The translations under genes and the position numbers were made by a program. From an uncultured Gammaproteobacteria bacterium (GTDB lineage: Bacteria; Patescibacteriota; Patescibacteriia; Magasanikbacterales; GWA2-37-8), in contig CAYUIA010000001.1 of assembly GCA_964444635.1 (NCBI GenBank), positions 1 to 41,983 of the forward strand: a stretch of 41,983 nucleotides of DNA. The letters run 5' to 3'. Position 1 is the first letter of the stretch; each line of letters begins with the position of its first letter. Below the pieces are notes generated by a model. It ran no database searches and had not been told where the DNA came from. It saw only the letters and a program-made list of their open reading frames with translations. This document shows positions 8,534 to 38,754 of this stretch, in pieces.

Positions 8534-9565
8534 ATGACACTAGAGATTAGAAAAAATACAAACAAAGAAGAATGGGACGATTTTTTATCTCAATTTTCCG
8601 ATTTTAATCCTTTTCCCCAGAGTTTTGCCTGGGGTGATGTTTTGATTACCGAAGGCAAGGAAGTGGAAAAATTGGCCATATTTGATGGAGGCGAGCAAAT
8701 AGCGGCTGTTTTGATTGTTTATGAAAAACTACCATTTGGCTGGAAATACGCATTTAGCCCAAAAGGCCCGGTGATTGGTATAAAGTATCAAGAATCCAGT
8801 ATTAAGTATGGAGAGGTCGTCTCTATAATTAGTGAGTATTTAAAAGACAAAGGATGTGTATTTTGGAGGTTGGAACCCAATGTTAATCTGCAATCTGAAA
8901 TCAAAAATCTAAAATTGGCAAAGGTTAAGGACATAAACCCCTCAAACACTTTATTGTTAGATTTGAATAAGAACTATGAAGAACTACTCTTTGCCATGCA
9001 CCCCAAAACCAGGTATAATATTGGCTTGAGTAAAAAGAAAGATCTGCGCATAGAAGAAAGAAAAGATTTGGAAATTTTTTGGGATTTGATGCAAAAAACA
9101 GGGGAGCGAGACGCTTTTCGTTTGCATCACAAAAAACATTATGAAGAAGTTTTGAATTCAGATCTAACTTCGCAAGTAATAGTGTATTTTGAAAATAAGC
9201 CAATTGCCACCGGGGTTTTTATAGGCTTTGGTCAAACATTTACCTATTTATACGGTGCTTCTGATTATGAATATCGCCAAGCAATGGCGCCTTATCTGAT
9301 ACAGGATTTTGGGATAAACAAAGCCAAAAATAAAGGGTTTAAAAAATATGATTTTTTTGGCATTGCTCCGTTAAACAAGGATGAGACAGGAGAGGTAATT
9401 TATGATGAAAAACATCAATATGCCGGTGTGACGAGATTTAAACTTGGTTTTGGTGGGGGATGCATCGCTTTCCCAGGAACATACGAAATTGTAATAAATA
9501 AAGTTTCATATCTATTTTTAAGTTTGATGAAAAAAATTCGGAAAATATTGAATATTAAATATTGA
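8534..9565 (+). CDS. FemAB-family peptidoglycan interpeptide-bridge peptidyltransferase-like protein
   Basis: 343 aa. The FemAB-like central block MHPKTRYNIGLSKKKDLRIEE...FWDLMQKTGERDAFRLHHKKHYEEVL and the C-terminal GVTRFKLGFGG resemble the PF02388 family. Confidence 0.75.
   Translation: MTLEIRKNTNKEEWDDFLSQFSDFNPFPQSFAWGDVLITEGKEVEKLAIFDGGEQIAAVLIVYEKLPFGWKYAFSPKGPVIGIKYQESSIKYGEVVSIISEYLKDKGCVFWRLEPNVNLQSEIKNLKLAKVKDINPSNTLLLDLNKNYEELLFAMHPKTRYNIGLSKKKDLRIEERKDLEIFWDLMQKTGERDAFRLHHKKHYEEVLNSDLTSQVIVYFENKPIATGVFIGFGQTFTYLYGASDYEYRQAMAPYLIQDFGINKAKNKGFKKYDFFGIAPLNKDETGEVIYDEKHQYAGVTRFKLGFGGGCIAFPGTYEIVINKVSYLFLSLMKKIRKILNIKY
8777..8811 (+). repeat. 35-nt, five-heptad (GTATNNN) element in frame inside the femAB-like CDS
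   Basis: ggtataaagtatcaagaatccagtattaagtatgg encodes GIKYQESSIKYG. It is 32/35 identical to 36590-36624 (reverse complement), and by that comparison also related to the intergenic copy at 38714-38748. Confidence 0.8.
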
Positions 9566-9583
9566 ATATTATTTTTTACAATT

Positions 9584-9616
9584 AAAAAACCCCTCCATTT
9601 TGTGGAGAGGTTTTTT
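9584..9616. terminator. Bidirectional terminator between the convergent femAB-like gene and gyrA
   Basis: aaaaaacccctcca-ttttg-tggagaggtttttt: 9-bp stem with one mismatch, A-run and T-run on the flanks. Confidence 0.75.
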
Positions 9617-9626
9617 GTTTTATTTT

Positions 9627-12116
9627 TTATACTTCTTCTTTATCCTGTAAAACCATAGTGACGGAAACAACTTTGTCAGCTTCTTCTTTGAAACGCATCA
9701 GACGAACACCTTGCGTAGCACGACCAGTGGTTGGAATAGTTTTGAAAGGTAGGCGAATAACTTGTCCTTTGGCGGACATTAAAATGATATCTTGGTTTTC
9801 TGCCAAATTTGGATCAATGACACTGGCGTGGATGATATATCCGGTTTTCTCCGTGACTTTGGCGGTTTTGATACCGCTGCCGGCACGTCCTTGAACTTTA
9901 TATTCATTTAGCGGAGTAAGTTTGCCTAAACCGTTTTCACCCACGGTTAAAAATTTTAGATTTTTACTTTCCGGATTGACTATGTCCATGCCGATAACCT
10001 CATCTTTATCGTGTAATCGCACACCTTTGACGCCAGATGCGGTACGGCCCATAGAACGGACATCTTCTTCTTCAAAACGGATAGATTGTCCTTCTTTGGT
10101 GGCGATCATGATTTCGTCTTTGCCGGTGCTTGGTTTGACCCACTCCAGATTATCTTCAGGACGGATTTTCAGAGCTATCAAACCGCTTTTGCGAACATTG
10201 GAAAAGTCGCTTAACGGAGTTTTTTTGATAACACCTTTGGTGGTAACCATGACTAAATATTTTATTTTTTCCAAATCAGACATGGCGAGAAAGGCGGTCA
10301 CTTTTTCATTTGGCGCCAATTGTAAGAAGTTTACCAAAGCTTGACCTTTGGCGGTGCGAGAAGCTTGCGGGATATCGTAAGCCATCAATTGGAAACATCG
10401 TCCGCGATTGGTGAAAAACAAAATATTATCATGAGTATTGGTAGATTGGATTTGCTCTACTGCTTCTTCTTCTTTGGTAGTCATGCCGATAACACCCTTA
10501 CCACCTCGGCTTTGTTGACGGAAAGTATCCGGTGGCATGCGTTTAATATAGCCGTCAGAAGTGATGAGAATCATTGTCGGTTCGTTTGGGATCAAGTCTT
10601 CCACGGTAAAATCTTTGATACCGTGAGCAACTATCTGAGTGCGACGAGGCTCTGCAAATTTATCTTTGATTTCCACTGTTTCATCCTTGATGATTTTGAG
10701 AATTTTGGTTTTGGAAGCCAAAATACTTTGTAGTTCTTTTATCAAAGCCAATTTTTCTTTGAGTTCATCTTCAATTTTTTTCGCTTCCAGGTTAGCCAAT
10801 TGTTGGAGCTTCATTTCCAAGATAGCAATTGCTTGTTTTTCGGTAAATTTGAATTTACTCATCAAGTTTTGTCGCGCTTCTTCCTTGTCTTTACTAGCCT
10901 TGATAGTTTTGATGATGAGGTCTATTTTATCCAGCGCCATTTTGAGGCCTTCTAATATATGGGCTCGGTCTTGAGCTTTGTTCAAATCAAATTCAGTTCG
11001 TCTTTTGACAACTTCTTGCCTATGTTTGATAAATTCTTCCAAAACAGTTTTGAGGTTGAGTACGCGAGGCTGGATTCCGTCAACAAGCGCCAACATGTTG
11101 GTGTGAAAAGTGGTTTGAAGTTCGGTTAAGTTGTAAAGTTGATTGAGAACTTTTTTGGGATAAGCGTCTTTTTTGAGTTCAATGACAACGCGGACGCCGT
11201 CTTTGTTACTTTCATCGCGTAAATCTTTGATGCCTTCAATTCTTTTTTCTTGCACCAGAGTAGCTATTTTTTCCAAAAGAGTGGCTTTATTGATTTGATA
11301 GGGGACTTCAGTGACGATAATTTGGAAATGTCCGGCTTTGGGTTCCTCTATATCGGCTTTGGCGCGGAGTACTACACCGCCTTTACCGGTTGCCAGGGCC
11401 GCAAAGATATCTTTTTTATTATAGATTATACCGCCGGTTGGAAAGTCAGGTCCTTTAACTACTTCGCACAAATCTTCTATGGAAGCTTCCGGTTCATCTA
11501 TCAATTTTGTAATACCGTCGCAAAGCTCTCCTAAATTATGCGGAGCAATGGAAGTGGCCATACCTACCGCAATACCCATGGTGCCGTTTAAAAGAAGATT
11601 GGGTACTTTTGTGGGCAATACAGCCGGTTCATTGTGAGAACCGTCATAAGTTGGGTTAAAATTGACAGTATTTTTCTCAATATCAGTAAGCATTTCCTCG
11701 GCAATCGCTTGGAGTTTGGCTTCGGTGTAACGCATCGCGGCTGCGCCATCGCCGTCCATGGAACCGAAGTTTCCTTGACCGTTGACCAGTTGATGTCGCA
11801 TGGAAAAATCTTGAGCCATACGCACCATTGAGTCATAAATGGCAGCATCACCGTGTGGGTGGTATTTAGCCATCACCTCACCGACTACGTGGGCGGATTT
11901 GCGGAATTTGGCATTATGTTTGAGGCCAATATCCCACATGGCATAGAGAATACGGCGGTGCACAGGTTTGAGACCGTCGCGGACATCAGGTAATGCGCGA
12001 GACACGATGACACTCATTGCATATTCCAAATATGCTTGTTTAACTTCTTGTGACAGAGAAGCATCGGTGATTTTTCCAATATCTCCCTTTACCAATTTCA
12101 TTTTTTCTTGAGACAT
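9627..12116 (-). CDS. gyrA: DNA gyrase subunit A
   Basis: 829 aa. YAMSVIVSRALPDVRDGLKPVHRRILYAM, the active-site motif AAAMRYTEA, and C-terminal beta-pinwheel repeats. Confidence 0.97.
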   Translation of the reverse strand: MSQEKMKLVKGDIGKITDASLSQEVKQAYLEYAMSVIVSRALPDVRDGLKPVHRRILYAMWDIGLKHNAKFRKSAHVVGEVMAKYHPHGDAAIYDSMVRMAQDFSMRHQLVNGQGNFGSMDGDGAAAMRYTEAKLQAIAEEMLTDIEKNTVNFNPTYDGSHNEPAVLPTKVPNLLLNGTMGIAVGMATSIAPHNLGELCDGITKLIDEPEASIEDLCEVVKGPDFPTGGIIYNKKDIFAALATGKGGVVLRAKADIEEPKAGHFQIIVTEVPYQINKATLLEKIATLVQEKRIEGIKDLRDESNKDGVRVVIELKKDAYPKKVLNQLYNLTELQTTFHTNMLALVDGIQPRVLNLKTVLEEFIKHRQEVVKRRTEFDLNKAQDRAHILEGLKMALDKIDLIIKTIKASKDKEEARQNLMSKFKFTEKQAIAILEMKLQQLANLEAKKIEDELKEKLALIKELQSILASKTKILKIIKDETVEIKDKFAEPRRTQIVAHGIKDFTVEDLIPNEPTMILITSDGYIKRMPPDTFRQQSRGGKGVIGMTTKEEEAVEQIQSTNTHDNILFFTNRGRCFQLMAYDIPQASRTAKGQALVNFLQLAPNEKVTAFLAMSDLEKIKYLVMVTTKGVIKKTPLSDFSNVRKSGLIALKIRPEDNLEWVKPSTGKDEIMIATKEGQSIRFEEEDVRSMGRTASGVKGVRLHDKDEVIGMDIVNPESKNLKFLTVGENGLGKLTPLNEYKVQGRAGSGIKTAKVTEKTGYIIHASVIDPNLAENQDIILMSAKGQVIRLPFKTIPTTGRATQGVRLMRFKEEADKVVSVTMVLQDKEEV

Positions 12117-12134
12117 ACATTAATATATTTTTTT

Positions 12135-12207
12135 ATTATTCAATATTCAGTATTCAATATTTATGTTTAAAACAAAAAAATATTGGATATTGAATATTAA
12201 ATATTAA
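12135..12207. repeat. AT-rich heptad-word palindrome (attcaat / attgaat)
   Basis: Left arm tattattcaatattcagtattcaatattt, right arm aaatattggatattgaatattaaatatta, which are approximate reverse complements. The right arm overlaps the stop codon of the 12204 gene. Confidence 0.65.
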
Positions 12208-12644
12208 TTATTGTTTATTGAGGAAGTTGTAGAAGAGACAATGTTGAGAGTGCTCGTTAACATCAAACCGATAGTGTTTGTATTGATCGTAGGTGTGCCG
12301 GTTGTAGTGCTGACAATTTGTTGTAAAAATCCAGAAACTTGTTTTTTAATATCGGAAATATCCTTTTCTTTTTCTTGTTTTTCAAAAGACTCGGTCCATT
12401 TTTGCTCGGCTGTATTTTTTATGTCTAGTGTAGCTTTATCCCAGTTGAAAGCGTTGATCTGTAGTTGAGTGGTGTAGGCAAAAAAAACAACAAGCCCGAC
12501 AGTAATAGAGCCGACACCAAACCATAATAGTTTTTTGGCTGAATCTTTGGAATTTTGGTGTTCAAAAAAAGTGACGAATTTTTCCAAATCCTCCGAAGAT
12601 TTTTTTTCCGCTTCTTCTTTTAGGGCGCCTTTTTTCTTAGGCAT
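12204..12644 (-). CDS. Hypothetical single-pass membrane protein
   Basis: 146 aa. One TM segment (LLWFGVGSITVGLVVFFAY). 3 nt downstream of the preceding gene (apparent coupling). T/S/N-rich C-terminus. Confidence 0.6.
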   Translation of the reverse strand: MPKKKGALKEEAEKKSSEDLEKFVTFFEHQNSKDSAKKLLWFGVGSITVGLVVFFAYTTQLQINAFNWDKATLDIKNTAEQKWTESFEKQEKEKDISDIKKQVSGFLQQIVSTTTGTPTINTNTIGLMLTSTLNIVSSTTSSINNN

Positions 12645-14700: not shown

Positions 14701-14727
14701 AAAAACCGCCTGAAAGGGCGGTTTTTT
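14701..14727 (+). terminator. rpsA terminator
   Basis: CCGCCT-GAAA-GGGCGG (GNRA tetraloop) followed by T6. Confidence 0.8.
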
Positions 14728-14771
14728 GGTAGTTAGTATTAAGTATGGAAACTGTAAATATGTCATCCCTG
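14714..14771 (+). repeat. 58-nt block shared with 16915-16986 (terminator 3' half, TAGT heptads, then gtcatccctg)
   Basis: aagggcggttttttggtagttagtattaagtatggaaactgtaaatatgtcatccctg. Identical to the ftsH-downstream copy except that copy carries a 14-nt tandem duplication. Confidence 0.85.
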
Positions 14772-14901
14772 TATTATGTTCGTCCGTAGCTTTAGCGAAG
14801 CCTAGGGCTTGCCGGGTGTAGCTTTAACGAAGCCCGGTTGATTTTTTCCCATATTTATTATATTATTAAAATACTCTAAATTATTATAAAAACTTTTATT
14901 T

Positions 14902-16728: not shown

Positions 16729-16770
16729 GCTAGTAAGCAGTAAAGCTGTAAAGCAATAAAGCAAACAAAT

Positions 16771-16899
16771 GTCATTGCGAGGATTCGCCTCCGCCAGTTG
16801 GCGGGTGGCGGAGACGAAGCAATCCCACGAAGTTCAGTAATCAGTGGGATTGCCACGACCCTTCGGAACGCTAAGCGTCCCTCCGGGTCTCGCAATGAC
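16771..16899. repeat. 129-nt GC-rich multi-hairpin MITE/REP-like element
   Basis: 11-bp terminal inverted repeats GTCATTGCGAG...CTCGCAATGAC. Internal hairpins cgcctccgcc/ggcgggtggcg and gcaatcccac/gtgggattgc. A truncated right-end copy lies at 17543-17575. Confidence 0.75.
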
Positions 16900-16902
16900 A
16901 TT

Positions 16903-16929
16903 AAAATCGCTCGCAAGGGCGGTTTTTTG
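16903..16929 (+). terminator. ftsH terminator, copy 1 of a 27-nt exact duplicate
   Basis: aaaatcgctcgcaagggcggttttttg: stem TCGCTC/GGGCGG, GCAA tetraloop, T-run. Confidence 0.75.
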
Positions 16930-16986
16930 GTAGTTAGTATTAAGTATTTAGTATTAAGTATGGAAACTGTAAATATGTCATCCCTG
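16915..16986 (+). repeat. Second copy of the 58-nt block, with an internal 14-nt tandem duplication
   Basis: Same sequence as 14714-14771, with ttagtattaagtat present twice. Confidence 0.85.
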
Positions 16987-17077
16987 CGAAAGCAGGGATC
17001 CAGGAAAGTTAAAATTATATATTACCACTGGATTCTTCGCGTTTCCCAAAGGGAGGCCTTTGGCCCGCGGGAATGAC
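16977..17077. repeat. 101-nt MITE/REP-like element with GTCATCCC...GGGAATGAC termini
   Basis: Terminal inverted repeats gtcatccc/gggaatgac. Internal hairpins ccctgc-gaaa-gcaggg and atccag...ctggat. Confidence 0.7.
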
Positions 17078-17083: not shown

Positions 17084-17110
17084 AAAATCGCTCGCAAGGG
17101 CGGTTTTTTG
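17084..17110 (+). terminator. Copy 2 of the 27-nt terminator sequence
   Basis: Identical to 16903-16929. Confidence 0.75.
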
Positions 17111-17138
17111 TAGTCTGTAGTCTGAAGACCGAAGACTG
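17111..17138 (+). repeat. Heptad array tagtctg-tagtctg-aagaccg-aagactg
   Basis: Four 7-nt units directly after the terminator T-run. 16 nt (tctgtagtctgaagac) recur at 17589-17604. Confidence 0.8.
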
Positions 17139-17143
17139 ATATA

Positions 17144-17459: not shown

Positions 17460-17506
17460 AATACAGAAAAAAACAAAACTCGACCAATTATGATCGAGTT
17501 TTTTTG

Positions 17507-17604
17507 TAGTCAGTAGTCTGTAGTCCGAAGTCCAATTTATAACCAGTGGGATTGCTTCGTTTCACTCGCAATGACAGTAGTCCCGTAATCTGTAGTCTGA
17601 AGAC
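17507..17604. repeat. Heptad arrays (tagtcag-tagtctg-tagtccg-aagtcca and ...gtagtct-gaagact) flanking a truncated MITE end
   Basis: Arrays at 17507-17534 and 17577-17604. 17543-17575 (ccagtgggattgcttcg...ctcgcaatgac) matches the right end of the 16771-16899 element. Confidence 0.7.
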
Positions 17605-18770
17605 TATTTTACATTCTTCACCACCACTTTAATCTTATCCGCCGAGCTTGGAGCGGTATCACTCCAAGAAGGGGAGAATTTTACATTAACTCCGGTGACA
17701 TGCGGTAAGCTCACAACATATCTTTCTATTTCACTTTTTTCTTTACCGGCAAAATTGGATTTATCCAAACTTTTGGCTTCGGCATTGAGAGTTACCAGAG
17801 TTTCTTGAGCTACGGTCAAATCGGCTGTTTGTTTTACCAGATCGGTAGAAGCCACAGTGACGACAGGTTCGCCGGAAAAGGAAAGTATTTTTTCAGAATT
17901 ATCATCTATAGATTTGCCTATTTCTTTGTTTAATATTTCTTCCAAATCTTTTTTGGCGAAATAAACCGCGACGAGAGTTGAGGTTCCTGAAAGTGTGAAA
18001 GTGCCGGTTTCTTCACCAGCTTTGTGTGAAGAGGCAGGATTGCTCTCGGTTACGGTGATGATTTTCATATCCGCCCAAAGCTCTGTTTCCCCGATTTGTT
18101 TGAGATAAGCTTGTTTTACTTTTTCTTTATAATCATTTTTGGCGGCCGAAATGTCTGTTTCAGAAACCATACCGATTTTACCGCTACCGCCGCTCATAGG
18201 TTTGGAACTCTCTGCATAAACCACTTTTTGTTTATCTGTAGAAAGTCCGGGAATAGTAAATTTGGTTGGCCCGATATCGCTAGCAGCTCCGTTTTGATCG
18301 GCATAAACTTTGGCGGTTATTTGTCCGCGAGCCGGGATAGTCACCCTATCTTCCAAACGGAAAAGCACATTATCCGGAGAAAGTAGGCGAGTGGTTTTGA
18401 CCAAGATTTGAACTTCGGAAGTATTGTTGTACAGGGTTACTTCGCCTTTGGAAATGCCTTCTACTGTTTTGACACCGGTTGGTGAATAATTTTCGCTCAG
18501 ATAAAATTTGGTGGTGGTGACGATAGCAGCTACTGATTTTTCTCCGCTTTTTTCTTTCATCGCATTTATTGAAATATTGATTGTTTTTTTACTTTCTTTG
18601 GCGATAATGGTAATTTCGGTTTTTTTCAAAGCGGAAAAAATCACAATAGCCAACAATATTACGGTTAATGCCAAAAAGGAGAAAGCAATAACTCGATAAG
18701 TTTTTACCGGCGGTTCATGAGCCGGTTTGGTAGAAAGGCGATGAGCGTACATATTAAAGTTATTTAACAT
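17604..18770 (-). CDS. Hypothetical membrane-anchored extracytoplasmic protein
   Basis: 388 aa. One N-terminal TM segment (VIAFSFLALTVILLAIVIFSAL). The rest is beta-rich, and I recognise no family. Confidence 0.6.
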   Translation of the reverse strand: MLNNFNMYAHRLSTKPAHEPPVKTYRVIAFSFLALTVILLAIVIFSALKKTEITIIAKESKKTINISINAMKEKSGEKSVAAIVTTTKFYLSENYSPTGVKTVEGISKGEVTLYNNTSEVQILVKTTRLLSPDNVLFRLEDRVTIPARGQITAKVYADQNGAASDIGPTKFTIPGLSTDKQKVVYAESSKPMSGGSGKIGMVSETDISAAKNDYKEKVKQAYLKQIGETELWADMKIITVTESNPASSHKAGEETGTFTLSGTSTLVAVYFAKKDLEEILNKEIGKSIDDNSEKILSFSGEPVVTVASTDLVKQTADLTVAQETLVTLNAEAKSLDKSNFAGKEKSEIERYVVSLPHVTGVNVKFSPSWSDTAPSSADKIKVVVKNVK

Positions 18771-18926
18771 TTAAAATTTAATATTTAAAATTACGTACGA
18801 ACTACGAAAGTATACCTGCCCGCCAACGGCCTGGAGCCGTAAGGCGAATGGCAGGCGGGCGAAATTACGAAAATAAATAAATGAATTTATTCTTTAATAT
18901 AGTATACCATTTTTGCAATAAGTTGA

Positions 18927-20632: not shown

Positions 20633-21598
20633 TTATTTTTGAAAAAGTTTAATAAAAAGATGGCCGATACTGGAAAAAATACCTTTGTGATGCATCTTCA
20701 TAAAAAGATACATCCAAGTACCGGTATTAAAAGCATTGTAAAAACCGCCGATAATGATTATCAAAACCGTGATAGTTAAAATACTCAAAATTATCCCTAG
20801 GTTTAACAAGAAAATACTATTGACCAGTCCGGCCAAGAACCACAGGATAGTAGCCGGAATAAAAGATAAGACAATAACTGTGGAAATCAAAGAGGCTAAT
20901 ACCAAATCCAATAGTAACATTATCAAGCTTATTTCAAAAGAAACCAAAAAGTGATCCTTGAAAAGCAAAGCGCCTTTTTTCAGACTCTCGCCAAAAGATT
21001 TATTATCAATGACTGCGTAGCCAGAAGCGTAGATAGAAACGGCGGTCACAACAAGCATGATAAAAATAGCGATGATAAAAGACAAAATCAGAAAGACCTT
21101 GGTTGGCAGGTTATTGCTTGTTCCCAAAAACCAAACACCGGCGCTAAAAGCGGTCATTAAGATCAAAATTATTTTACGTAATAAATCAAAGCCTAGTATT
21201 TTCCAAAAATATTTGTAACTTTTGTGCCAAGTATCGGATAACTTGGAATGCGTCTTCTTTTTGTAATATTCGCAAGTGTTGATAATGAGCGAAGTTTGAG
21301 CACAAACGGAAACAAAAACTATAATTATGAAAATAGCCAAAATAATCTCAAGTAGCCAAACTGCGGAAACAAAATCAGCCGCCGAGCTGTGAGCGAGTAG
21401 ATTATAAAATCCCATCCAAGGAAAATGACTGAAACGAATAGTTTCGGAACCGGTCAAAAATATTTGTCCGTAAAAACCGCCCAATCCAAAAGGGCTGACA
21501 AAAAGTGCGGCCAAAATACCGAAAATCCAAAAAGATTTATTTTTCCAAACAAGGATAAAAGCGTTTTTTAAAGCTTCGCGATAACTTGGTTCGTACAT
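20633..21598 (-). CDS. Hypothetical polytopic membrane protein, apparently translationally coupled to pilB
   Basis: 321 aa with about 6-7 hydrophobic helices. Its stop codon is 2 nt from the pilB ATG. It does not resemble PilC. Confidence 0.6.
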   Translation of the reverse strand: MYEPSYREALKNAFILVWKNKSFWIFGILAALFVSPFGLGGFYGQIFLTGSETIRFSHFPWMGFYNLLAHSSAADFVSAVWLLEIILAIFIIIVFVSVCAQTSLIINTCEYYKKKTHSKLSDTWHKSYKYFWKILGFDLLRKIILILMTAFSAGVWFLGTSNNLPTKVFLILSFIIAIFIMLVVTAVSIYASGYAVIDNKSFGESLKKGALLFKDHFLVSFEISLIMLLLDLVLASLISTVIVLSFIPATILWFLAGLVNSIFLLNLGIILSILTITVLIIIIGGFYNAFNTGTWMYLFMKMHHKGIFSSIGHLFIKLFQK

Positions 21599-21800
21599 AA
21601 AAGTTATAAGTTAAAAGTTGAAAGTTGAAAGTTCGCCCAATTAATCCCTTAAAATAGTTCGTTTGAGGCAGGTTTTAACTAAGGCAAATAAATCCCAAAA
21701 ACACAAAAAAAGCACATTCTTTTGGAACAATATTATTATAGCATATTTTGGCTAAAATGGGGAAATTTTTCTCGGTTAAATTATCAACATGGGGATTATA

Positions 21801-22764: not shown

Positions 22765-22785
22765 ATTTTAAAACATACCAATATA

Positions 22786-22880
22786 CTAATGGTACGAATG
22801 ATACTAATGCTATACTAATACTCAATACGAATATATTCGTATTCCATTCGTATAATTAGTACAATTCGTATATTAGTATA
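22786..22880. repeat. AT-rich word palindrome (tactaat/acgaat words) between the T-box terminator and the thrS ATG
   Basis: Perfect 14-nt palindrome acgaatatattcgt at 22827-22840. It is flanked by tactaat/acgaat words on the left and attagta/attcgt words on the right. Confidence 0.6.
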
Positions 22881-22899
22881 AATTAAATAATATTCACAT

Positions 22900-24735
22900 A
22901 TGAAATTAGATATTTCAATTATGCGTCATAGTTGTGCGCACTTGGTGGCCGCGGCTGTAGCCGAGCTTTATCCTAAAGCTAAATTTGGTGTAGGCCCTAT
23001 GATTGAAAACGGGTTTTATTATGATATTGATTTTGGTGTGCCGATAACAGAAGAAGATTTACAAAAAATAGAGGACAAAGCCAAGGATCTGCAAAAACAA
23101 GATTTGCCATTTTCCCGTCAAGAGGTGACCCTTGACAAAGCTATGGAAAAGTTTGCACAAATGGGCCAAGATTACAAAGTAGAGCTGTTAAATGATCTCA
23201 AAACCAAAGGTACGACCAAAATCAATGATGAAGAATTGGCTGAGATTGGCGGAAATATAGATAAAGTCACTATCTATCAAACCGGTAATTTTATAGACCT
23301 TTGTCGTGGTCCGCACTTGAAATCTACCAAAGAAATCGGTGTTTTTAAGCTAACTAAACTGGCCGGTGCTTATTGGCGCGGTAAAAGCGAAAATCCGCAG
23401 TTGACCAGAGTTTATGGCGTTTGTTTTGCCAAACAAAAAGAGTTGGATGATTATCTGTTTTTGTTGGAAGAAGCGGAAAAACGAGATCATCGCAAACTGG
23501 GCAAGGAGTTGGATCTATTTCATATTGATGAGATGGTTGGTTTGGGTTTGCCCCTGTGGCATCCCAAGGGCGCGATAGTTTGGCGAGTGATTGAAGAATT
23601 TTGGTATAAGCATCATTTGCTTGATGGTTATGAATTGGTACGCACCCCGCACATTGGCAACAAAGCGCTTTGGGAAACTAGCGGACATTGGGGATTTTAT
23701 AATGATAGTATGTATCCGCCACTGGAGGTCGGGCAAACACTCAAAGAAAGTCAAAACAATCAAGAAGCCAAAGAGCATGAAACTTATTTGCTCAAACCCA
23801 TGAACTGTCCGTTTCATGTGCAGATTTTCAAAAATCGTCCATATTCTTATCGCGAACTTCCTCTGCGTTGGGCGGAATGTGGCACAGTTTATCGTCATGA
23901 GAAAAAAGGTCAGTTATCGGGTTTGACTCGCGTGCGCGGTTTTACTCAAGATGATGCGCATATTATTTGTTCCAAAGAACAAGTAGAAGAAGAGCTCAAA
24001 AGAGTGATAGATTTTATTTTGTTTATTTATAAATCGTTTGGTTTCAACATTGATGATGTACAAGTATTCTTGTCTTTGCGTGATCCAAATGATAAAGAAA
24101 AATATGTTGGTAGCGACGAGGGTTGGGAATTGACGGAAAGTGTTTTGCGTAAAGTTGCCAAAGAAAAGAAATTAAACTTTACCGAAGAACTTGGTGAAGC
24201 CGCTTTTTACGGTCCGAAATTGGATTTCAAAATTAAAGATTGTTTGGGCCGGCTCTGGCAATGCTCTACTTTGCAGTTTGATTTTAATATTCCGGAACGC
24301 TTTGATATGAATTTCGTAAATAATAAAGGCGAACAAGAACGTCCGTATATGTTACATCGCGCGCTATTTGGTTCGTTTGAGAGATTTATCGGCTTGCTCA
24401 TAGAACATTATGCCGGAGCTTTTCCAGTTTGGTTGGCACCGACACAAATTATGCTCGTACCGGTGAGTGAAAAACATGTAGAAGGCGCGAGAAAAATCAG
24501 AGCCGAGTTGATTGAGCTTGGTTTACGAGTGGAAAGCGATGAAGCGGATGAAACACTTGGTAACAAAGTTCGCAAAGCCGTGAAACAAAAAGTGCCTTAT
24601 ATTATCGCGGTGGGCGATAAAGAACTTAGCGGCGAAGATTGGATGATCAGAATCAGGGGGGTGGAAAAACAAGAAAAAATGAGTAAAGAAAAATTTATTG
24701 AAAAGATTTTGGGAGAAGTAAAAGAAAGAAAATGA
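22900..24735 (+). CDS. thrS: Threonyl-tRNA synthetase lacking the N-terminal TGS domain
   Basis: 611 aa. Begins at the editing-domain motif RHSCAHLVAAAV...GPMIENGFYYDIDF. Class II motifs YRHEKKGQLSGLTRVRGFTQDDAHI and GAFPVWLAP, plus an anticodon-binding domain. Confidence 0.96.
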   Translation: MKLDISIMRHSCAHLVAAAVAELYPKAKFGVGPMIENGFYYDIDFGVPITEEDLQKIEDKAKDLQKQDLPFSRQEVTLDKAMEKFAQMGQDYKVELLNDLKTKGTTKINDEELAEIGGNIDKVTIYQTGNFIDLCRGPHLKSTKEIGVFKLTKLAGAYWRGKSENPQLTRVYGVCFAKQKELDDYLFLLEEAEKRDHRKLGKELDLFHIDEMVGLGLPLWHPKGAIVWRVIEEFWYKHHLLDGYELVRTPHIGNKALWETSGHWGFYNDSMYPPLEVGQTLKESQNNQEAKEHETYLLKPMNCPFHVQIFKNRPYSYRELPLRWAECGTVYRHEKKGQLSGLTRVRGFTQDDAHIICSKEQVEEELKRVIDFILFIYKSFGFNIDDVQVFLSLRDPNDKEKYVGSDEGWELTESVLRKVAKEKKLNFTEELGEAAFYGPKLDFKIKDCLGRLWQCSTLQFDFNIPERFDMNFVNNKGEQERPYMLHRALFGSFERFIGLLIEHYAGAFPVWLAPTQIMLVPVSEKHVEGARKIRAELIELGLRVESDEADETLGNKVRKAVKQKVPYIIAVGDKELSGEDWMIRIRGVEKQEKMSKEKFIEKILGEVKERK

Positions 24736-26157: not shown

Positions 26158-27555
26158 ATGGCTAAATACTATCACATCATCACTTTTGGCTGTCAAATGA
26201 ATAAAAACGACTCAGAGCGCGCTGGGGCGCTTTTGGCGTCTCTTGGTATGAAAGAAACGCCGGTATTGGAAAAGGCGGATGTGGTGTTGGTAAATACCTG
26301 TAGCGTGCGTCAAATGGCCGAAGACAGGACCAGCGGGATAAACAGGAAGATTTTGAAATTGAAAAAACAAAAACCAAGTTTGATTTTTGCCGTAACCGGT
26401 TGTATGCCGGGGCGAGATACGGACGGACGATTGCGAAAAAAAATTCCCAGCGCGGATCTGTTTTTTCCGATCATTGATCTTCCTAAATTGCCGGTATGGT
26501 TGCGCGAACTTCAACCTGACTGGTTCAAACTGAAATTTGAAGATGTCGGACAGTATTGGAATATTGACCCAAAAAGAGAGCTTGATTACAAAGTTTTTAT
26601 CACTATTCAAATTGGTTGTAATAATTTTTGTTCGTATTGCGTAGTGCCTTATGCTCGGGGCAGAGAAAAAAACAGACCAGTGAAAGATATTTTGCAAGAA
26701 ATTAAAAAAGCGGTGAAAAAAGGCGCCAAAGAAATCACCTTGCTTGGGCAAGTAGTCAATAATTATCGCGCGCCTGACCCGGAAAATTATAAAAAAGAAA
26801 ATATATTTTCCCCCTCTGCCAGAGAGGGGGCGAAGGGGGAGAGGGAGAAAAACGATTTTGCGGCTTTGCTTTGGGAGATAAATAATATACCGGGCGATTT
26901 TCGTATTTTTTATACCGCTCCAGATCCACAACATTTTGATGATTATCAAGTTAAAGCGTTGAGTTTGCCCAAAATGGTGAACTATCTTCATTTGCCGGTG
27001 CAAGCGGGGGATAATGAAATACTCAAGAAAATGAATCGCAAATATACGCGCGAACAATTTATAAAATTAATCAAAAAAATTCGCGCGCAAAAACCCGAGA
27101 TTGCCATTGGTACGGATATTATTGTTGGTTTTTGCTCGGAAACTAAAAAACAATTTGAACAAACGGTTGATTTGTATAAACAATGTGATTTTGATATTGC
27201 GTATCTTGCTATGTACAGTCAGCGCAGTGGAACGGTAGCGGCGAAAATTTATAAAGATGATGTGGAAATTGCAGAGAAAAAACGTCGTTGGCGAGTATTA
27301 CAGGATTTGATGGAAGAAATAGTTTTGCGTAAAAACCAAAAATATTTAGGGCAAGTAGTGGAAGTATTGGTAGATGATTGTCAATCTCCCTCCTCTGCCC
27401 GAGAGGAGGGTGGGGTGGAGAGGGAGATTTGTACAGGGAATAGTAGTGAAATGAAAATGGTGCAGTTTTTGGGAAATAAAAAAATGATTGGGAAATTGAT
27501 AAAAGTGAAAATAAATTTTGCGGAGAAATGGATACTCAAGGGAGAAATAATTTAA
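26158..27555 (+). CDS. miaB: tRNA-i6A37 methylthiotransferase MiaB (radical SAM), carrying two in-frame repeat insertions
   Basis: UPF0004 N-terminal domain (YHIITFGCQMNKNDSE), radical-SAM motif CNNFCSYCVVPYARGRE and a C-terminal TRAM region. Confidence 0.93.
   Translation: MAKYYHIITFGCQMNKNDSERAGALLASLGMKETPVLEKADVVLVNTCSVRQMAEDRTSGINRKILKLKKQKPSLIFAVTGCMPGRDTDGRLRKKIPSADLFFPIIDLPKLPVWLRELQPDWFKLKFEDVGQYWNIDPKRELDYKVFITIQIGCNNFCSYCVVPYARGREKNRPVKDILQEIKKAVKKGAKEITLLGQVVNNYRAPDPENYKKENIFSPSAREGAKGEREKNDFAALLWEINNIPGDFRIFYTAPDPQHFDDYQVKALSLPKMVNYLHLPVQAGDNEILKKMNRKYTREQFIKLIKKIRAQKPEIAIGTDIIVGFCSETKKQFEQTVDLYKQCDFDIAYLAMYSQRSGTVAAKIYKDDVEIAEKKRRWRVLQDLMEEIVLRKNQKYLGQVVEVLVDDCQSPSSAREEGGVEREICTGNSSEMKMVQFLGNKKMIGKLIKVKINFAEKWILKGEII
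26809..26847 (+). repeat. GC-rich hairpin repeat in frame in miaB (copy 1, 39 nt, SPSAREGAKGERE)
   Basis: tccccctctgccagagagggggcgaagggggagagggag. Hairpin CCCCCTCT/AGAGGGGG. Exactly 13 codons. Confidence 0.8.
27385..27426 (+). repeat. GC-rich hairpin repeat in frame in miaB (copy 2, 42 nt, SPSSAREEGGVERE)
   Basis: tctccctcctctgcccgagaggagggtggggtggagagggag. Hairpin CCCTCCTCT/AGAGGAGGG. Exactly 14 codons. Confidence 0.8.
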
Positions 27556-28345: not shown

Positions 28346-28374
28346 TTGACAAAACTGGCTTTTTATGCTATATT
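28346..28374 (+). promoter_or_regulatory. Promoter of the 129-aa orphan gene
   Basis: TTGACA, 17 nt, TATATT. The promoter and leader share blocks (tttttatgctat, atagtacattaa) with the 30017 promoter region. Confidence 0.65.
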
Positions 28375-30016: not shown

Positions 30017-30045
30017 TTGACCAAAGTGTTTTTTTATGCTATTGT
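30017..30045 (+). promoter_or_regulatory. Promoter of the 126-aa orphan gene
   Basis: TTGACC, 17 nt, TATTGT. Homologous to the 28346 promoter and leader. Confidence 0.55.
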
Positions 30046-30529: not shown

Positions 30530-31450
30530 ATGAAAAATAAACTTCCAAAATTAATCGTTGTTTGCGGTCCGACCGCCAGCGGTAAAACCGATTTGGCTAT
30601 TGTATTGGCCAAAAAATTTAACGGTGAAATAGTCAATGCCGATTCTCGACAAATTTATAAAGAAATGGATATTGCCACCGCCAAGCCGACTCTGGACTAC
30701 GGACTACAGACTCCCGACTACATTGTTGACGGGATAAATCATTATTTACTTGATATTATAAACCCGGATGAAAATTTTACACTCAGCGATTATAAAGATC
30801 AAGCTCAAAAAACAATTAAAGAAATTATCAAAAAAGGAAAAATTCCTTTTTTGGTCGGTGGAACCGGTCTTTATATCAAAGCGATTGTAGATAATCTGGA
30901 AATCCCGAGAGTTGAACCGGATTTGGTTTTGCGCAGAGAGTTAGAAAGTAAAAGTGCGGAGGAAAGGATCAAAATGCTCAAAGAAATTGATCCGGAAACT
31001 TATGAAAAAATAGATATACAAAATCCGCGCCGGGTTATTCGAGCGCTTGAAGTGGTGCTAAGTACCGGGGAATCGTTTTTGAAACAACAAAAAAAAGGCA
31101 AACCGCTTTACGATGTTTTACAGTTAGGAATAAAAGTTGATAAAGAAAATTTATATGAGCGAATAAATAAGCGTTGTGAAAAAATGATTGAAGCCGGTTT
31201 AGTTCAAGAGGCCAAAAGGTTGGCACAAAAATATTCTTGGGAGTTGCCCAGTATGAGCGGTATCGGTTATAGACAAATGCGCGATTATATCGAGGGTAAG
31301 ATGACTTTGGAGGAGGCGATAGAATGGCTCCAAACAGATACTCGACATTATGCCAAACGACAGATGACTTGGTTTAGGAAAGATGAAAGAATTCATTGGA
31401 TAGAAAACGAGAAACAAGCAGAAAAGAAAATAGACGAATTTTTGAAATAA
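30530..31450 (+). CDS. miaA: tRNA dimethylallyltransferase MiaA with a short in-frame repeat-derived insertion
   Basis: P-loop GPTASGKT, then IVNADSRQIYKEMDIATAKP, LVGGTGLY and the C-terminal RHYAKRQMTWFR. Confidence 0.94.
   Translation: MKNKLPKLIVVCGPTASGKTDLAIVLAKKFNGEIVNADSRQIYKEMDIATAKPTLDYGLQTPDYIVDGINHYLLDIINPDENFTLSDYKDQAQKTIKEIIKKGKIPFLVGGTGLYIKAIVDNLEIPRVEPDLVLRRELESKSAEERIKMLKEIDPETYEKIDIQNPRRVIRALEVVLSTGESFLKQQKKGKPLYDVLQLGIKVDKENLYERINKRCEKMIEAGLVQEAKRLAQKYSWELPSMSGIGYRQMRDYIEGKMTLEEAIEWLQTDTRHYAKRQMTWFRKDERIHWIENEKQAEKKIDEFLK
30692..30712 (-). repeat. tagtc-type heptad repeat inside miaA (opposite orientation)
   Basis: The reverse complement agtctgtagtccgtagtccag matches 19/21 nt of the intergenic agtctgtagtccgaagtccaa at 17515-17535. 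It encodes part of LDYGLQTPDY. Confidence 0.7.
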
Positions 31451-36024: not shown

Positions 36025-37161
36025 TTATACCATTTTTTGATAAACCGATAAAGTGGTTTCAGCGGTATTTTTTTGGCTATATTTAGACAAAATATACGGC
36101 ATGTTGTTGATAAGTTTTTGGCGTATGTTTGTATCGGTCAAAATTAGGCTTATTTTTGAACAAATATCTTGTTCAGTTAGAGGATCAAAATACAAAGCTG
36201 CTTCACCTAAAATTTCCGGCAAACAAGCGGAGTTGGTAGAAATTGTTGGTACACCATATTGCATAGCTTCAAGCGGAGGCAAACCAAATCCTTCGTATAA
36301 AGAAGGAAAAACATAAGCGGTTGCATTTTTATAAAACATTGCCAATTCTGCATCAGGCACAAAATCCGTAAAAACAATATTTTGACAATTTTTAAAAATT
36401 TCGGAATTTATCAAGCGATCGTAAAAATAATTTTTTTTGCCAACTAGAACAAGTTGAAAATTTTTATTTTTTTCTTCAAATTTTTTCCAAGATTTCACGA
36501 GCTGTTCCAGGTTTTTATGTGGATAAGCCACCCCTACATAAAGCAGATAAGGCTTTAAAATATGATGCTTTATTAAAAGATTTTCGTTTCCATACTTAAT
36601 ACTTGATACTGGATACTTTATACCCAAATCGGTCGGAGCCAGATGGGTTACGGTGATTTTTTCTTCCGGCATGTGTAGGGTTTTAGTTATATCCTGTTTG
36701 GTAAAGTTACTTGGGGTTATAATTTGCACGGCCTTTTTAACCGCATGGTGTAGGATAAATCTATAAGCGAGATTTTTGAAAAAATATTTGAGCGGTCCCA
36801 AGGTGCTGGATTGGCGACTTGGATAATGAAGTAAAATCAGGTCATGAATAGTTACAATAAATTTTCCGCGATAAAAAAACGGGATATTCCAGTGGGGAAA
36901 ATGGACAAAATCACAATTTTCTTTTTTTAAAATTCTAGGCAGTAAAATTTGCTCTTGCCAGCCATACCATGGAATATCGGCTAAAATCTTTTTAAAACGA
37001 GGATTTTTTGGTTGATATTCTTCAAAATTTTCTTGACGCAAAAAAATCACGTAATCATTGTTTTGGTCGTTTTTTTCTAAACCTGTTATGAGTTGTTGTA
37101 AATAGCGCCCCAGACCACCCTGTTTTGGGCCGTATAGGCGCGCATCTATCCCTATTTTCAT
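36025..37161 (-). CDS. Glycosyltransferase family 4 (GT-B, Glycos_transf_1)
   Basis: FPSLYEGFGLPPLEAMQYGVPTISTNSACLPEILG (E-x7-E region). Contains the in-frame 35-nt heptad element. Confidence 0.88.
   Translation of the reverse strand: MKIGIDARLYGPKQGGLGRYLQQLITGLEKNDQNNDYVIFLRQENFEEYQPKNPRFKKILADIPWYGWQEQILLPRILKKENCDFVHFPHWNIPFFYRGKFIVTIHDLILLHYPSRQSSTLGPLKYFFKNLAYRFILHHAVKKAVQIITPSNFTKQDITKTLHMPEEKITVTHLAPTDLGIKYPVSSIKYGNENLLIKHHILKPYLLYVGVAYPHKNLEQLVKSWKKFEEKNKNFQLVLVGKKNYFYDRLINSEIFKNCQNIVFTDFVPDAELAMFYKNATAYVFPSLYEGFGLPPLEAMQYGVPTISTNSACLPEILGEAALYFDPLTEQDICSKISLILTDTNIRQKLINNMPYILSKYSQKNTAETTLSVYQKMV
36590..36624 (-). repeat. 35-nt, five-heptad (GTATNNN) element in frame inside the GT4 CDS
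   Basis: The reverse complement ggtataaagtatccagtatcaagtattaagtatgg encodes GIKYPVSSIKYG. Together with the next 4 nt it matches gtattaagtatggaaac of the intergenic blocks at 14740-14756 and 16955-16971. Confidence 0.8.
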
Positions 37162-37259: not shown

Positions 37260-37311
37260 AGTTTCTTCTTGTTCTTTCGACAAATCATCCAACCTGTTTT
37301 TGGAGGCGCCA

Positions 37312-37542
37312 ATGACCAAACCTCTTTTGAAGAAAAAGGAAAATGAAGAAATTGATCGTATTTGCGGTCAATGCAGCGGTAAAGAAAAAAACCTAGTTCC
37401 CCATGTGGCTTATTATGCTATGTGTGTGGGGACATTATGGAGGAAAATGAACTGCAAAACATGCGGAAGCATTTCTCAAGAGCCAGTCAGTAGTAAAGAG
37501 GAAGATAAGGTGATGAAAGATTTTGTCATAAAAGAAATGTAG
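37312..37542 (+). CDS. Orphan 76-aa zinc-ribbon protein (start moved to the ATG preceded by an SD)
   Basis: GGAGG 5 nt before the ATG at 37312 (MTKPLL...). CGQC...CKTCG cysteine pairs. Has its own terminator. Confidence 0.7.
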   Translation: MTKPLLKKKENEEIDRICGQCSGKEKNLVPHVAYYAMCVGTLWRKMNCKTCGSISQEPVSSKEEDKVMKDFVIKEM

Positions 37543-37566
37543 TCTCGAAGACTACAAAACATAACC

Positions 37567-37598
37567 AAGACCCTTTTTAAGGGTCTTCTTTTATTTTA
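37567..37598. terminator. Bidirectional terminator between the zinc-ribbon gene and the convergent GT4
   Basis: aagaccct-tttt-aagggtctt followed by cttttatttt. Confidence 0.7.
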
Positions 37599-38706
37599 AA
37601 ATATTCAAAAATTCTTTTGCTGACGAGTTCCAAGAAAATTTTTCAGCCTGGATTTTGGCTTTTGATACTAAATTATTTTTTATATTTTGGTCATTAAGTA
37701 TTTTAATCAAGCCTTCAGATATTTGTTTCGTTTTGTTAGGATCTACTAGATAAGCGTTTTTTGAAGTTATTTCCACCAGAGAGGATGCATTACTTGTTAT
37801 GACCGGGACACGACAATGCATGGCTTCTAGAACAGGAAAGCCAAAGCCTTCATAAAAAGAAGGGTAAATAAAAGCGGCGGCGCGATTATAAAGCTCCGGC
37901 TTATCTTCATTTTTTACATAACCGACAAAGGTTATTTTTTGCGTTAACGGTGATTTTTCTATTTTTTCAAAAATATCTTTATTTTTCCATCCGGGCGCGC
38001 CGGCTATTACTAAACTGTAGGGTAGGGGCAAAGATGTAAAAGCTTGTTCAAAAGCCAAAATAGTTCCTAAAATATTTTTTCTAGGCTCAAGTGCTCCCAA
38101 AAAAAGAATGTAATTATCCGGTAGTTGCAGATTCTTATTTTGTTTTTGGGGCTCGTTAAATACGGAGGATAAGCCGGGATAAATAATTTTGATTTTATTT
38201 TCCGATAATTTATAAAAATTTATCAAATCGCGTTTAGTATTGACACTGGGGGTTAAAATGATATCCGCGTAACAGCATTGTTTTTTAGGGTTGATAAGGT
38301 GATGCCAAAGTTTTTGTTTAAAAGAAAAATACTCTGGAAAAAGTTCAAAAGATAAATCATGCACAGTCAGAATATGTTTGGTTTTTTTACTTAGAGCGGT
38401 AAAATTTAGATTTGGCGAGAAAAAATAATCCAATTTTTGCGGAGCAAAAGTGTCTATTTTTGGCCATTTTAGAAATTTTTGACAAAAGTTGAAGAGTTTA
38501 TTCGGCCAATTTTTTTTTATAAAATGGACATTTTCATATTTCCAAGTTGGCAAATATTTTTCAAGATCTTTATAAGAATTATAAAACAAAAAATATTGAT
38601 TTTGGCGATCAATTTGAAAAATTGCATTAAGAAGCTCATAAGTGTATTCGCCAACCCCGGTGCGAATAGGAGATAGGAGGGGGCGGATGTCAATGCCAAT
38701 GTTCAT
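37591..38706 (-). CDS. Glycosyltransferase family 4
   Basis: YPSFYEGFGFPVLEAMHCRVPVITSNASSLVEI. 371 aa. Confidence 0.88.
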   Translation of the reverse strand: MNIGIDIRPLLSPIRTGVGEYTYELLNAIFQIDRQNQYFLFYNSYKDLEKYLPTWKYENVHFIKKNWPNKLFNFCQKFLKWPKIDTFAPQKLDYFFSPNLNFTALSKKTKHILTVHDLSFELFPEYFSFKQKLWHHLINPKKQCCYADIILTPSVNTKRDLINFYKLSENKIKIIYPGLSSVFNEPQKQNKNLQLPDNYILFLGALEPRKNILGTILAFEQAFTSLPLPYSLVIAGAPGWKNKDIFEKIEKSPLTQKITFVGYVKNEDKPELYNRAAAFIYPSFYEGFGFPVLEAMHCRVPVITSNASSLVEITSKNAYLVDPNKTKQISEGLIKILNDQNIKNNLVSKAKIQAEKFSWNSSAKEFLNILK

Positions 38707-38713
38707 AAATTGA

Positions 38714-38754
38714 GGTATTAAGTATCAGGTATTATGTATTAAGTATGTAAACTG
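38714..38754 (+). repeat. Intergenic full-length copy of the 35-nt GTATNNN heptad element
   Basis: ggtattaagtatcaggtattatgtattaagtatgt followed by aaactg. 29/35 identical to the GT4 coding copy, with the same 35-nt length. Confidence 0.8.

Follow-up and report, generated by a model that had tools for sequence, protein, structure and literature searches.

The stretch of DNA analyzed here, called the window throughout, is the 41,983 nucleotides of contig CAYUIA010000001.1, and our subject is a set of short tandem arrays of 7-nt units (heptads) that it carries both within and between genes. Homologues of the proteins encoded in the window place the host, an ultra-small bacterium, in Candidatus Magasanikbacteria, within the Patescibacteria or Candidate Phyla Radiation (CPR). 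The GC content is about 38%, and about 13% of the DNA is non-coding. A preliminary description of this sequence drew attention to a 35-nt element of five GTATNNN heptads in three copies, and all three are present on the strands described. The first (8777-8811, + strand) lies in frame in the coding sequence of a FemAB-like protein (8534-9565) and encodes GIKYQESSIKYG; the second (36590-36624, - strand) lies in frame in the coding sequence of a GT4-family protein (36025-37161) and encodes GIKYPVSSIKYG in its inter-domain linker; the third (38714-38748, + strand) is located 6-8 nt upstream of the start codon of a GT4 paralogue (37591-38706, - strand). The FemAB and GT4 copies are identical at 32 of 35 positions and the GT4 and intergenic copies at 29 of 35, as had been reported. 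The GT4 linker was also described as longer than that of the paralogue, and by BLASTP the difference is 9 amino acids.

The shorter copies noted downstream of the rpsA and ftsH terminators are likewise present. One follows the rpsA terminator directly (14729-14753, + strand, three units) and the other a terminator-like hairpin downstream of ftsH (16929-16968, + strand, five units); both run on into GGAAAC, as the GT4 copy does. These two arrays are embedded in a longer common repeat consisting of terminator, heptads and GGAAACTGTAAATATGTCATCCCTG, and that at 16929-16968 is a paralogous copy of the repeat at 14702-14771 with exactly two extra units. An inverted pair of GTATYAT arrays of five units each (41615-41702; + strand at 41615-41658, - strand at 41664-41702) is predicted to form a hairpin between a sugar-transferase gene and a probable RNase P RNA. 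A further GTAT copy is found just outside the window in the same species, at the 3' end of the RNase J gene. Many GTAT copies have five units, start with GGTAT and finish with GTATGGAAAC. Small palindromic elements (GTCATTGCGAGG...CCTCGCAATGAC and GTCATCCCTGCGAAAGCAGGGAT) were observed beside several of the intergenic GTAT arrays, at 14760-14835, 16765-16900 and 16975-17075 in the window and at 4076-4100 in contig L129, and at three loci the terminator, the heptads, GGAAACTGTAAATAT and a hairpin together make up a composite repeat.

Chance levels for GTAT motifs were set with dinucleotide-preserving shuffles of the window. The sequence GTATTAAGTAT, with at most one mismatch, has 16 matches in the window where 1.03 are expected, and three consecutive GTATNNN units have 18 matches where 0.07 are expected. 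The family singled out in the preliminary description is therefore real, but it is only one of at least six unit families in the window: GTATNNN, AATATTG, TGTAGTC/GAAGAC, AAAGTTG, TTTATTG and ATTTAAA. Tandem arrays of any period were sought using the TRF program and a self-match scan, at stringent and relaxed settings and with Markov controls. Period 7 gave 10 arrays at the stringent and 17 at the relaxed setting, against 0-0.1 in the controls, while other periods gave 0-3; non-coding window DNA also has an identity peak at lag 7. For comparison, 1.29 Mb from about 80 Patescibacteria species was fetched around orthologues of FemAB, a gene that is itself rich in arrays. This set contains 72 period-7 arrays, against no more than 7 for any other period from 4 to 12, and these use 52 canonical unit types. 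In the window and the multi-species set alike, array length is narrowly spread at about 4-6 units. The 35-mers are thus probably members of a widespread class of short heptanucleotide arrays, of 3-6 units and with highly varied unit sequences, that Patescibacteria commonly carry.

Intergenic regions and gene edges hold 12 of the 17 relaxed window arrays; in the FemAB-centred multi-species sample, 46 of the 72 arrays lie in long open reading frames (ORFs). About 12 window arrays are intergenic, and four of these are within 12 nt of a start codon or overlap one, the others being found after terminators or in hairpins. For example, an ATTTAAA-type array (18759-18794) overlaps the start codon of the coding sequence at 17604-18770 (- strand), and an AAAGTTG-type array (21595-21637) abuts that of the coding sequence at 20633-21598 (- strand); in other species, units of the AAAGTTG type are translated as KLKVES in FemAB and MiaA. 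A TGTAGTC/GAAGAC array (17106-17140, + strand) follows a terminator of the type seen downstream of ftsH and has related copies at 17503-17536 and 17585-17604. Inverted pairs, predicted to form hairpins at some intergenic sites (z about -3), include an AATATTG-type pair upstream of gyrA (12128-12222, with arms at 12128-12165 and 12177-12222) and a TTTATTG array at 38763-38803 with its inverted AATAAAC partner at 38810-38828 (38763-38828 overall). Single arrays fold no better than shuffled sequences (z -0.1 to +0.9) and show no palindromic structure; an array in a 5' untranslated region is predicted to be fully unstructured, at 0 kcal/mol, with all 200 shuffles folding at least as well. At gathering thresholds, Rfam gave no match at the arrays.

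Within genes, the arrays occupy recurrent positions. The FemAB gene of the window holds three: the GTAT array at a first hot spot, an AATCTGA-type array (8884-8916, + strand) that encodes NLQSEIKNLKL in frame at a second, and an AATATTG-type array (9541-9571, + strand) that spans the last codons and the stop (..KILNIKY*). Among 82 FemAB loci, 25 genes carry a total of 40 arrays, all confined to residues 80-99, 120-129 and 280-289 and the C-terminus. These positions coincide with the stretches of lowest confidence in the AlphaFold model: the low-pLDDT block 81-90 at the first hot spot, block 121-130 at the second, and the C-terminus. In an alignment to Staphylococcus aureus FemA, the array peptide matches a variable segment before a helix. 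Similarly, the sole segment of the GT4 model with pLDDT below 50 is 182-191, which lies within the array peptide in the inter-domain linker. In MiaA (30530-31450; Pfam IPPT), a GACTACN array (30687-30722, + strand) stands in frame just after the invariant DIATAKP motif; its unit is the reverse complement of the intergenic TGTAGTC family.

Orthologues reveal that the position is conserved and the unit is not. FemAB and GT4 orthologues that are 70-83% identical carry differing 7-residue-periodic peptides at one position in the protein alignments, among them GIKYQESSIKYG, KISNFQFPISN, SKKLKVESYKV and KMTNDQFPMTN. The window's FemAB DNA reads GGTATAA AGTATCA AGAATCC AGTATTA AGTATGG, and at this site, between near-identical flanks, a relative with an 82% identical FemAB protein has a perfect (AATTTCC)x4. 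After the DIATAKP motif of MiaA, the window has (GACTACN)x4, L085 a perfect (GACTACG)x4, L083 (AAAGTWG)x5 and L084 (ACAAGTK)x4, the last though the proteins are 93% identical. Arrays of differing units thus share a codon position in FemAB, MiaA and GT4. The preliminary description expected orthologue alignments to reveal insertions. Orthologues do have shorter or wholly different linkers, and the segments are tolerated in coding sequence as lineage-specific additions or replacements, but elsewhere the array positions are filled by unrelated units. The GT4 arrays of the window and L083 share about 80% identity, a level similar to that of the remainder of the gene, and this fits vertical inheritance.

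Several other features were seen in these genes. A second kind of in-frame micro-insertion, a palindrome of about 20 nt (CTTGCCTACCGGCAGGCAGG) that encodes LPTGRQ or LPAGR, interrupts the heptad array of the L084 GT4 gene (2604-3779) at the DNA level; the GT4 orthologues P0126 and P0136 have peptides that match, as do the FemAB orthologues P0010 and P0013, though elsewhere in the protein. The L086 GT4 gene (854-2053) has a 63-nt insertion in its heptad array, which encodes LNPAKPEFRDERNYLTGVNP and contains the hairpin CCGGCAAAGCCGG. The window and L001 share a tract of 2.3 kb, 97-100% identical, which stops exactly at the FemAB array. It extends over 6406-8770 of the window and 7856-10240 of L001 and takes in a tRNA region, RNase III, NusB, L32 and the 5' end of FemAB; outside it the two are 82-86% identical. 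As far as sequence comparison goes, this implies recent recombination between species, and P0243 is a further FemAB mosaic. The position of this breakpoint does not in itself point to a recombination hot spot at the array, since a tract should stop where homology does. A divergent patch at 6646-6720 in the identical tract was considered as a possible array and proved to be a tRNA-flanking terminator hairpin.

The occurrence of one peptide in two non-homologous proteins had been taken as a sign of a common insertion. The peptide is indeed present, and more widely than was described: a wider sequence search placed the unit family at many intergenic sites and in frame in five or more additional unrelated proteins. 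The peptide GIKY-x-(V/E)(S/L/F)S-IKY-x is found in FemAB, in GT4 and GT2, in ArgRS, and in both a P-type ATPase and a membrane protein; an IleRS-type enzyme has a related one. No common insertion is needed to account for it. Because 7 and 3 share no factor, every reading frame passes through the seven phases of the unit in turn over 21 nt. An in-frame array consequently encodes a peptide of 7-residue periodicity, frame-preserving changes of length come in steps of three units (7 residues), and a unit containing TAA must be mutated wherever TAA falls in phase. Whichever frame is translated, a perfect (GTATTAA)n gives VLSIKY*, and the other strand has stops too. We examined seven in-frame GTAT copies, from FemAB, GT4 (two species), GT2, ArgRS, the P-type ATPase and the membrane protein, and in all seven a sense codon stands exactly where TAA would fall in phase. 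They read GGT ATW AAG TAT NNN ... AGT ATT AAG TAT GNN, and the array ends at the next TAA phase. The peptide IKY-x-(V/E)(S/L/F)S-IKY-x is what (GTATTAA)n gives on translation after mutation of the in-phase TAA codons, and every host of the GTATTAA family carries it because those codons must be mutated. Stop-codon avoidance likewise explains why the coding copies have five units and GG..GG ends. Excision of the 35-mer at the RNA level was considered and rejected: as long as the array is retained, the conserved domains on its two sides share a frame, and 35 cannot be divided by 3.

Changes of unit number between strains, which the preliminary description had proposed to look for, were found at intergenic arrays. 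Twenty contigs from other samples were used, chosen for encoding an identical FemAB or GT4 protein (10 each). Strain L135 has +7 nt at 38713, where the neighbouring GTATCAG of the array at 38714-38748 is exactly duplicated, and -14 nt at 38763, in the TTTATTG array; the array at 14729, after the rpsA terminator, has +14 nt (five units) in two other strains. These whole-unit differences come from anchored extraction, the BLAST indel listing having smeared the compound +7/-14 change into 1-nt gaps. In about 200 kb of strain alignment (295 single-nucleotide polymorphism cells), clusters of indels are confined to two array-bearing intergenic regions, and every other indel is a lone change of 1 nt. 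For coding arrays of orthologues, the difference is exactly 7 residues, or three units, between P0012 and P0013 and between P0135/P0133 and P0125. The whole-unit differences between strains and the 7-residue steps between orthologues are signatures of slippage.

The preliminary description also suggested that such changes might shift the frame and give phase variation. The FemAB gene of L027 is frameshifted within a (GTCGAAA) array, and loss of one unit would correct the frame, but this is one among 25 array-bearing FemAB genes of different species, the other 24 being in frame, and the coding arrays do not vary in the sampled strains. The FemAB and GT4 arrays are invariant in 10 strain contigs each, these contigs having been chosen for identical proteins, and also in every member of the clusters at 90% identity; the MiaA array, the sole unbiased coding observation, is identical in 7 of 7 strain contigs. 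An apparent frame change in L026 was set aside, as it is a masked run of N. It should be noted that in strain L133 (3240-4354) the GT4 paralogue is split by a 1-nt deletion at about window position 38049, outside any array, which shows the background frameshift rate in these assemblies.

We consider that heptanucleotide arrays driven by slippage and filtered by coding constraints are, on balance, the best explanation of the 35-mers. Replication slippage by whole units of 7 nt would both create the arrays in situ and alter their length; this mechanism is conjectural, as is any polymerase-related cause of the preference for 7 nt. Coding constraint would then act as a filter: to persist, an array would have to lie in a disordered loop or linker, have no stop codon in its orientation and phase, and keep the reading frame through its total length. 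Over evolution it would be inherited vertically and drift, or be replaced by an array of another unit, perhaps by expansion of a variant unit or by recombination with a divergent allele.

A number of observations weigh against this explanation. Exact clusters of the GTAT core are concentrated in particular lineages, with four in the 42-kb window, three in L085, two in L083 and three in L018, against two in the other 1.19 Mb or so. In coding and non-coding copies alike, the GTAT core changes far less than the 3-nt spacer: in orthologous pairs 3.6% of the core has changed as against 16.5% of the spacer (p about 0.001); unforced core columns are 94-100% conserved, and spacer columns keep the consensus base in 56-79% of copies. 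Such conservation of core over spacer could be mimicked by unit turnover as well as produced by selection. A perfect match of 54 nt over the FemAB array joins genomes that are only 72.5% identical, and complete replacement of arrays has occurred between proteins 82-93% identical with no intermediates visible. The gradient expected from stepwise duplication was not confirmed: mismatch between units rises with lag, from 1.68 to 3.98, but the array detector selects on similarity at lag 1, and in a control ascertained by pattern, free of this bias, there was no effect, adjacent units being no more alike than distant ones. Finally, the preference for a period of 7 is left without explanation. The lineage-specific amplification of GTAT, the conservation of its core and the wholesale replacement of units all go beyond what slippage by itself accounts for.

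A different view is that the arrays are written or maintained by a period-7 process that is aware of sequence, with short-patch templated conversion, or an oligomeric factor that binds nucleic acid and reads a 4-nt core every 7 nt, as candidates. We regard this as unlikely. If true, such a process would give lineage-specific unit families, conserved cores, shared hot spots in housekeeping genes and swaps of arrays between close relatives.

The preliminary description favoured a mobile or templated micro-insertion. On such a view, a GTAT element of about 35-40 nt would be copied from a master or template into new sites by a transposition-like event, short-patch gene conversion or templated repair synthesis. 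Lineage-specific additions tolerated in coding sequence are supported, as is polymorphism in heptad number, but a discrete 35-nt element is not, given the varied flanks and ends and a unit number of 3 to more than 8. The GTAT family is about 23-fold denser in the window than in distant species, and is in frame in FemAB, GT4, GT2, ArgRS, the IleRS-type synthetase, the P-type ATPase and the membrane protein; it is also present at the RNase J 3' end and, in antisense orientation, in TatD. The copies that share five units, a GGTAT start and a GTATGGAAAC end, the 54-nt identity between otherwise distant genomes and the clean array swaps between close relatives would also suit copying; the common size and the GG..GG ends, however, are forced by stop-codon avoidance. 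Metagenomes were scanned with a degenerate 35-mer in which 21 of the 35 positions are fixed. The 45 matches obtained lie on 42 stretches, which represent 34 different contexts. A surrounding long ORF is absent for 26 of the matches, several are in frame in the sense orientation, several abut start codons and one is in frame antisense in TatD (ILNTKYLI). Pairwise identity among the 34 contexts has a median of 30/35, with 15% of pairs at 32/35 or above, figures that are informative for the free positions alone. An identity of 32/35 is therefore typical of any two family members in this pattern-selected reference set, and indicates membership of the family rather than direct copying.

Other evidence also tells against a mobile element. 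Across the 34 contexts no sequence outside the heptads is conserved, so that there are no conserved termini beyond the heptads themselves; no inverted repeats are visible at the GTAT copies, and no duplicated flank was found in 45 oriented copies, with no clean empty site for comparison. The number of units changes singly between strains, divergence of the GT4 array between the window and L083 is close to that of its gene, the shared hot spots are used in like manner by dozens of unrelated units, and no candidate enzyme was identified. Sharing of units within a genome was tried as evidence of templating and rejected: a loose test gave 28 against 15.1 expected, and with exact units, hairpin partners removed and a GC-matched permutation the excess was weak, with p about 0.07 and 0.02. 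We therefore think that a mobile or templated element is an improbable source of the 35-mers.

Equally doubtful, in our estimation, is a function in cis, with the arrays serving as sites for an oligomeric factor that binds single-stranded or duplex nucleic acid through a 4-nt core in each 7 nt, or as structure-free leaders that aid translation initiation, and the coding copies being by-products. Conservation of core over spacer in coding and non-coding copies alike fits such a role, and selection at the protein level cannot explain it because the heptad passes through all codon phases; nevertheless slippage-driven unit turnover can mimic this pattern. The narrow range of array length (about 4-6 units), the four of about 12 intergenic arrays at or within 12 nt of a start codon, the predicted lack of structure of the 5' untranslated array and the similar placement of TAACTGA repeats in Beggiatoaceae (PMC4679880) also speak for a function in cis. 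Placement as a whole is inconsistent, however, with arrays on either strand, after terminators, in genes and as hairpin pairs; more than 50 units would demand many factors or a recognition blind to sequence, and unrelated units replace arrays at one site without evident consequence. A comparison of Shine-Dalgarno sequences for genes with upstream arrays was uninformative, as only 3 of the 28 window genes have a canonical Shine-Dalgarno sequence. These three were counted within 20 nt of the start codon; the leaders in general are A/T-rich.

A role as contingency loci, in which slippage by one unit would toggle envelope enzymes (FemAB, GT4, GT2) in the manner of neuO, seems very improbable. A heptad step does shift the frame, hosts in the window include envelope enzymes, the FemAB gene of L027 is out of frame and correctable by removal of one unit, and intergenic arrays slip between strains, with neuO itself as precedent (PMC13001214). 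On the other hand, the coding arrays are short, at five imperfect units compared to 3-53 perfect repeats in neuO; they are invariant in strain contigs and 90%-identity clusters, though only the MiaA observation is free of selection bias; 24 of 25 array-bearing FemAB genes are in frame; and the hosts include essential housekeeping enzymes (MiaA, ArgRS, the IleRS-type enzyme, TatD and the P-type ATPase) that it makes little sense to switch off. Chance resemblance, which the preliminary description had raised as a possible objection in a genome of about 38% GC with AT-rich units, is excluded for practical purposes by the shuffle and Markov controls, with 16-18 motif matches where 0.07-1 are expected, 10-17 arrays where 0-0.1 are expected, and an enrichment of period 7 only.

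Heptanucleotide repeats are stated to be the most over-represented long simple sequence repeats (LSSRs) in many bacteria, with polymerase slippage as a suggested cause (Mrazek et al. 2007, as related in PMC4679880 and PMC4692102). The window arrays have the properties of this class, being head-to-tail with period 7, in excess over chance and subject to whole-unit change between relatives. They resemble the known bacterial examples (cyanobacterial STRR heptamers, GGGAATC in Xanthomonas and GGGGAYT in Nostoc) in the strict 7-nt period and its excess over other periods, in length and sequence that vary between close relatives at matching intergenic sites, perhaps in a mostly intergenic location, in hairpin formation by inverted pairs and in the slippage proposed as their cause. 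They differ in that many unit families coexist in a genome as short arrays of 3-6 units, and a sizeable share lies in frame at fixed enzyme loops, with a unit that differs by species. The TAACTGA direct repeats of marine Beggiatoaceae and some Cyanobacteria and Bacteroidetes (MacGregor 2015, PMC4679880) also come in sets of 2-6 heptamers. Many of those sets stand a few nucleotides from a start codon, often just upstream of it; some lie within or overlap ORFs and encode a heptad-periodic peptide, and the unit has stops in all frames of one strand. Mobility has been suspected for them and no mechanism found (PMC4679880). That system, however, has one dominant heptamer, with related heptamers rarely repeated, whereas more than 50 units are used here and none is TAACTGA; where it occurs inside genes, it is found for the most part in hypothetical proteins or at the ends of proteins, whereas here internal hot spots of housekeeping enzymes are used.

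The neuO gene of Escherichia coli K1 contains a translated, phase-variable variable-number tandem repeat of the heptanucleotide AAGACTC (PMC13001214). As in our coding arrays, the 7-nt repeat is translated in frame, the full-length protein is made just at suitable unit numbers and slippage changes the number; neuO, however, has 3-53 perfect units at its 5' end and is visibly phase-variable, while the coding arrays of the window have about five imperfect units, with no long near-perfect tract, in internal loops, and are invariant in the sampled strains. Rickettsia palindromic elements (RPEs), in-frame insertions of about 150 bp that resemble MITEs, the miniature transposable elements with inverted repeats (PMC10969869), are similar in that one repeat family is in frame in many unrelated metabolic genes, with a conserved peptide and apparent compatibility with the fold. 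RPEs are discrete and palindromic, however, while the present arrays are direct tandem repeats of 21-45 nt without palindromy or fixed ends. Of the hallmarks of MITEs and RPEs, the arrays have the in-frame location in unrelated genes with a conserved peptide, and lack conserved ends and fixed length, inverted repeats and target-site duplication; the conserved peptide is explained without mobility because of stop-codon avoidance. Bacterial tandem repeats of constant size and variable sequence have also been described (Subirana & Messeguer, PMC8161180). These too form species-specific families with no assigned function, but their units are 20-21 and 52 nt (20-21 nt happens to equal 3 x 7) and they are described as non-coding. 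In summary, the arrays fit the heptanucleotide simple sequence repeat class and do not fit MITEs or RPEs, the single-unit TAACTGA system or a neuO-type switch. We found no report of heptad arrays in Patescibacteria among open-access papers and bioRxiv preprints. The phylum, the many unit families in one genome, the fixed enzyme hot spots with species-specific units and the footprint of stop escape look new.

Some further features of the window were observed. An ORF of 2106 amino acids (4-6324) has no Pfam hit on record in the gene calls of its orthologues and contains six dispersed copies of a 23-nt motif, GGTATTGGCACATCTACCCCCGG, that encodes GIGTSTP. The region 6406-6585 shows perfect conservation between species, and its 3' end (TGGGTCGCCGGAGGAATCGAAC...) is like that of a tRNA; it may be an interrupted tRNA or other structured RNA, and ARAGORN and Rfam call just the adjacent tRNA-Lys (6586-6659). 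The main region of tandem repeats with a period other than 7 is a cluster of 9-nt (ATACTAATG) and 18-nt (ATTCGTATAATTAGTAAA) repeats at 22775-22884, upstream of the gene starting at 22900. The gene for a MiaB-like radical-SAM protein (26158-27555) contains a G-rich direct repeat of 44 nt, ATTTTCCCCCTCTGCCAGAGAGGGGGCGAAGGGGGAGAGGGAGA, at 26805-26848 and 27384-27427, and the length of this protein varies among orthologues and strains (440, 452 and 465 amino acids). A promoter-like 26-mer close to consensus, TTGACAAAAnTGnnnnnnTATGCTAT, occurs at 28346-28371, 30017-30042 and 41737-41762. The last copy is just upstream of an RNase P RNA-like sequence (about 41780-41983) that is cut by the window end; Rfam did not call this stretch at its gathering score.

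Why heptanucleotide repeats have a period of 7, and whether they have any role, are questions that have stayed open (PMC4679880, PMC4692102). Patescibacteria offer an unusually clean natural experiment, with coexisting unit families, enzyme positions that can be aligned over dozens of species, and unit polymorphism at the level of strains. Selection can be read in the footprint that the mismatch between 7 and 3 leaves, in stop-escape codons, 7-residue steps and low-confidence loops. The birth, turnover and replacement of arrays can be measured against a protein-coding clock, and models based on slippage, templated conversion and binding sites are directly testable. In CPR genomes, array peptides that recur in unrelated proteins (IKY..SSIKY, KLKVES and ISNFQFP) can lead homology searches and the annotation of domains astray, and the arrays themselves mark loops that are tolerant of insertions.

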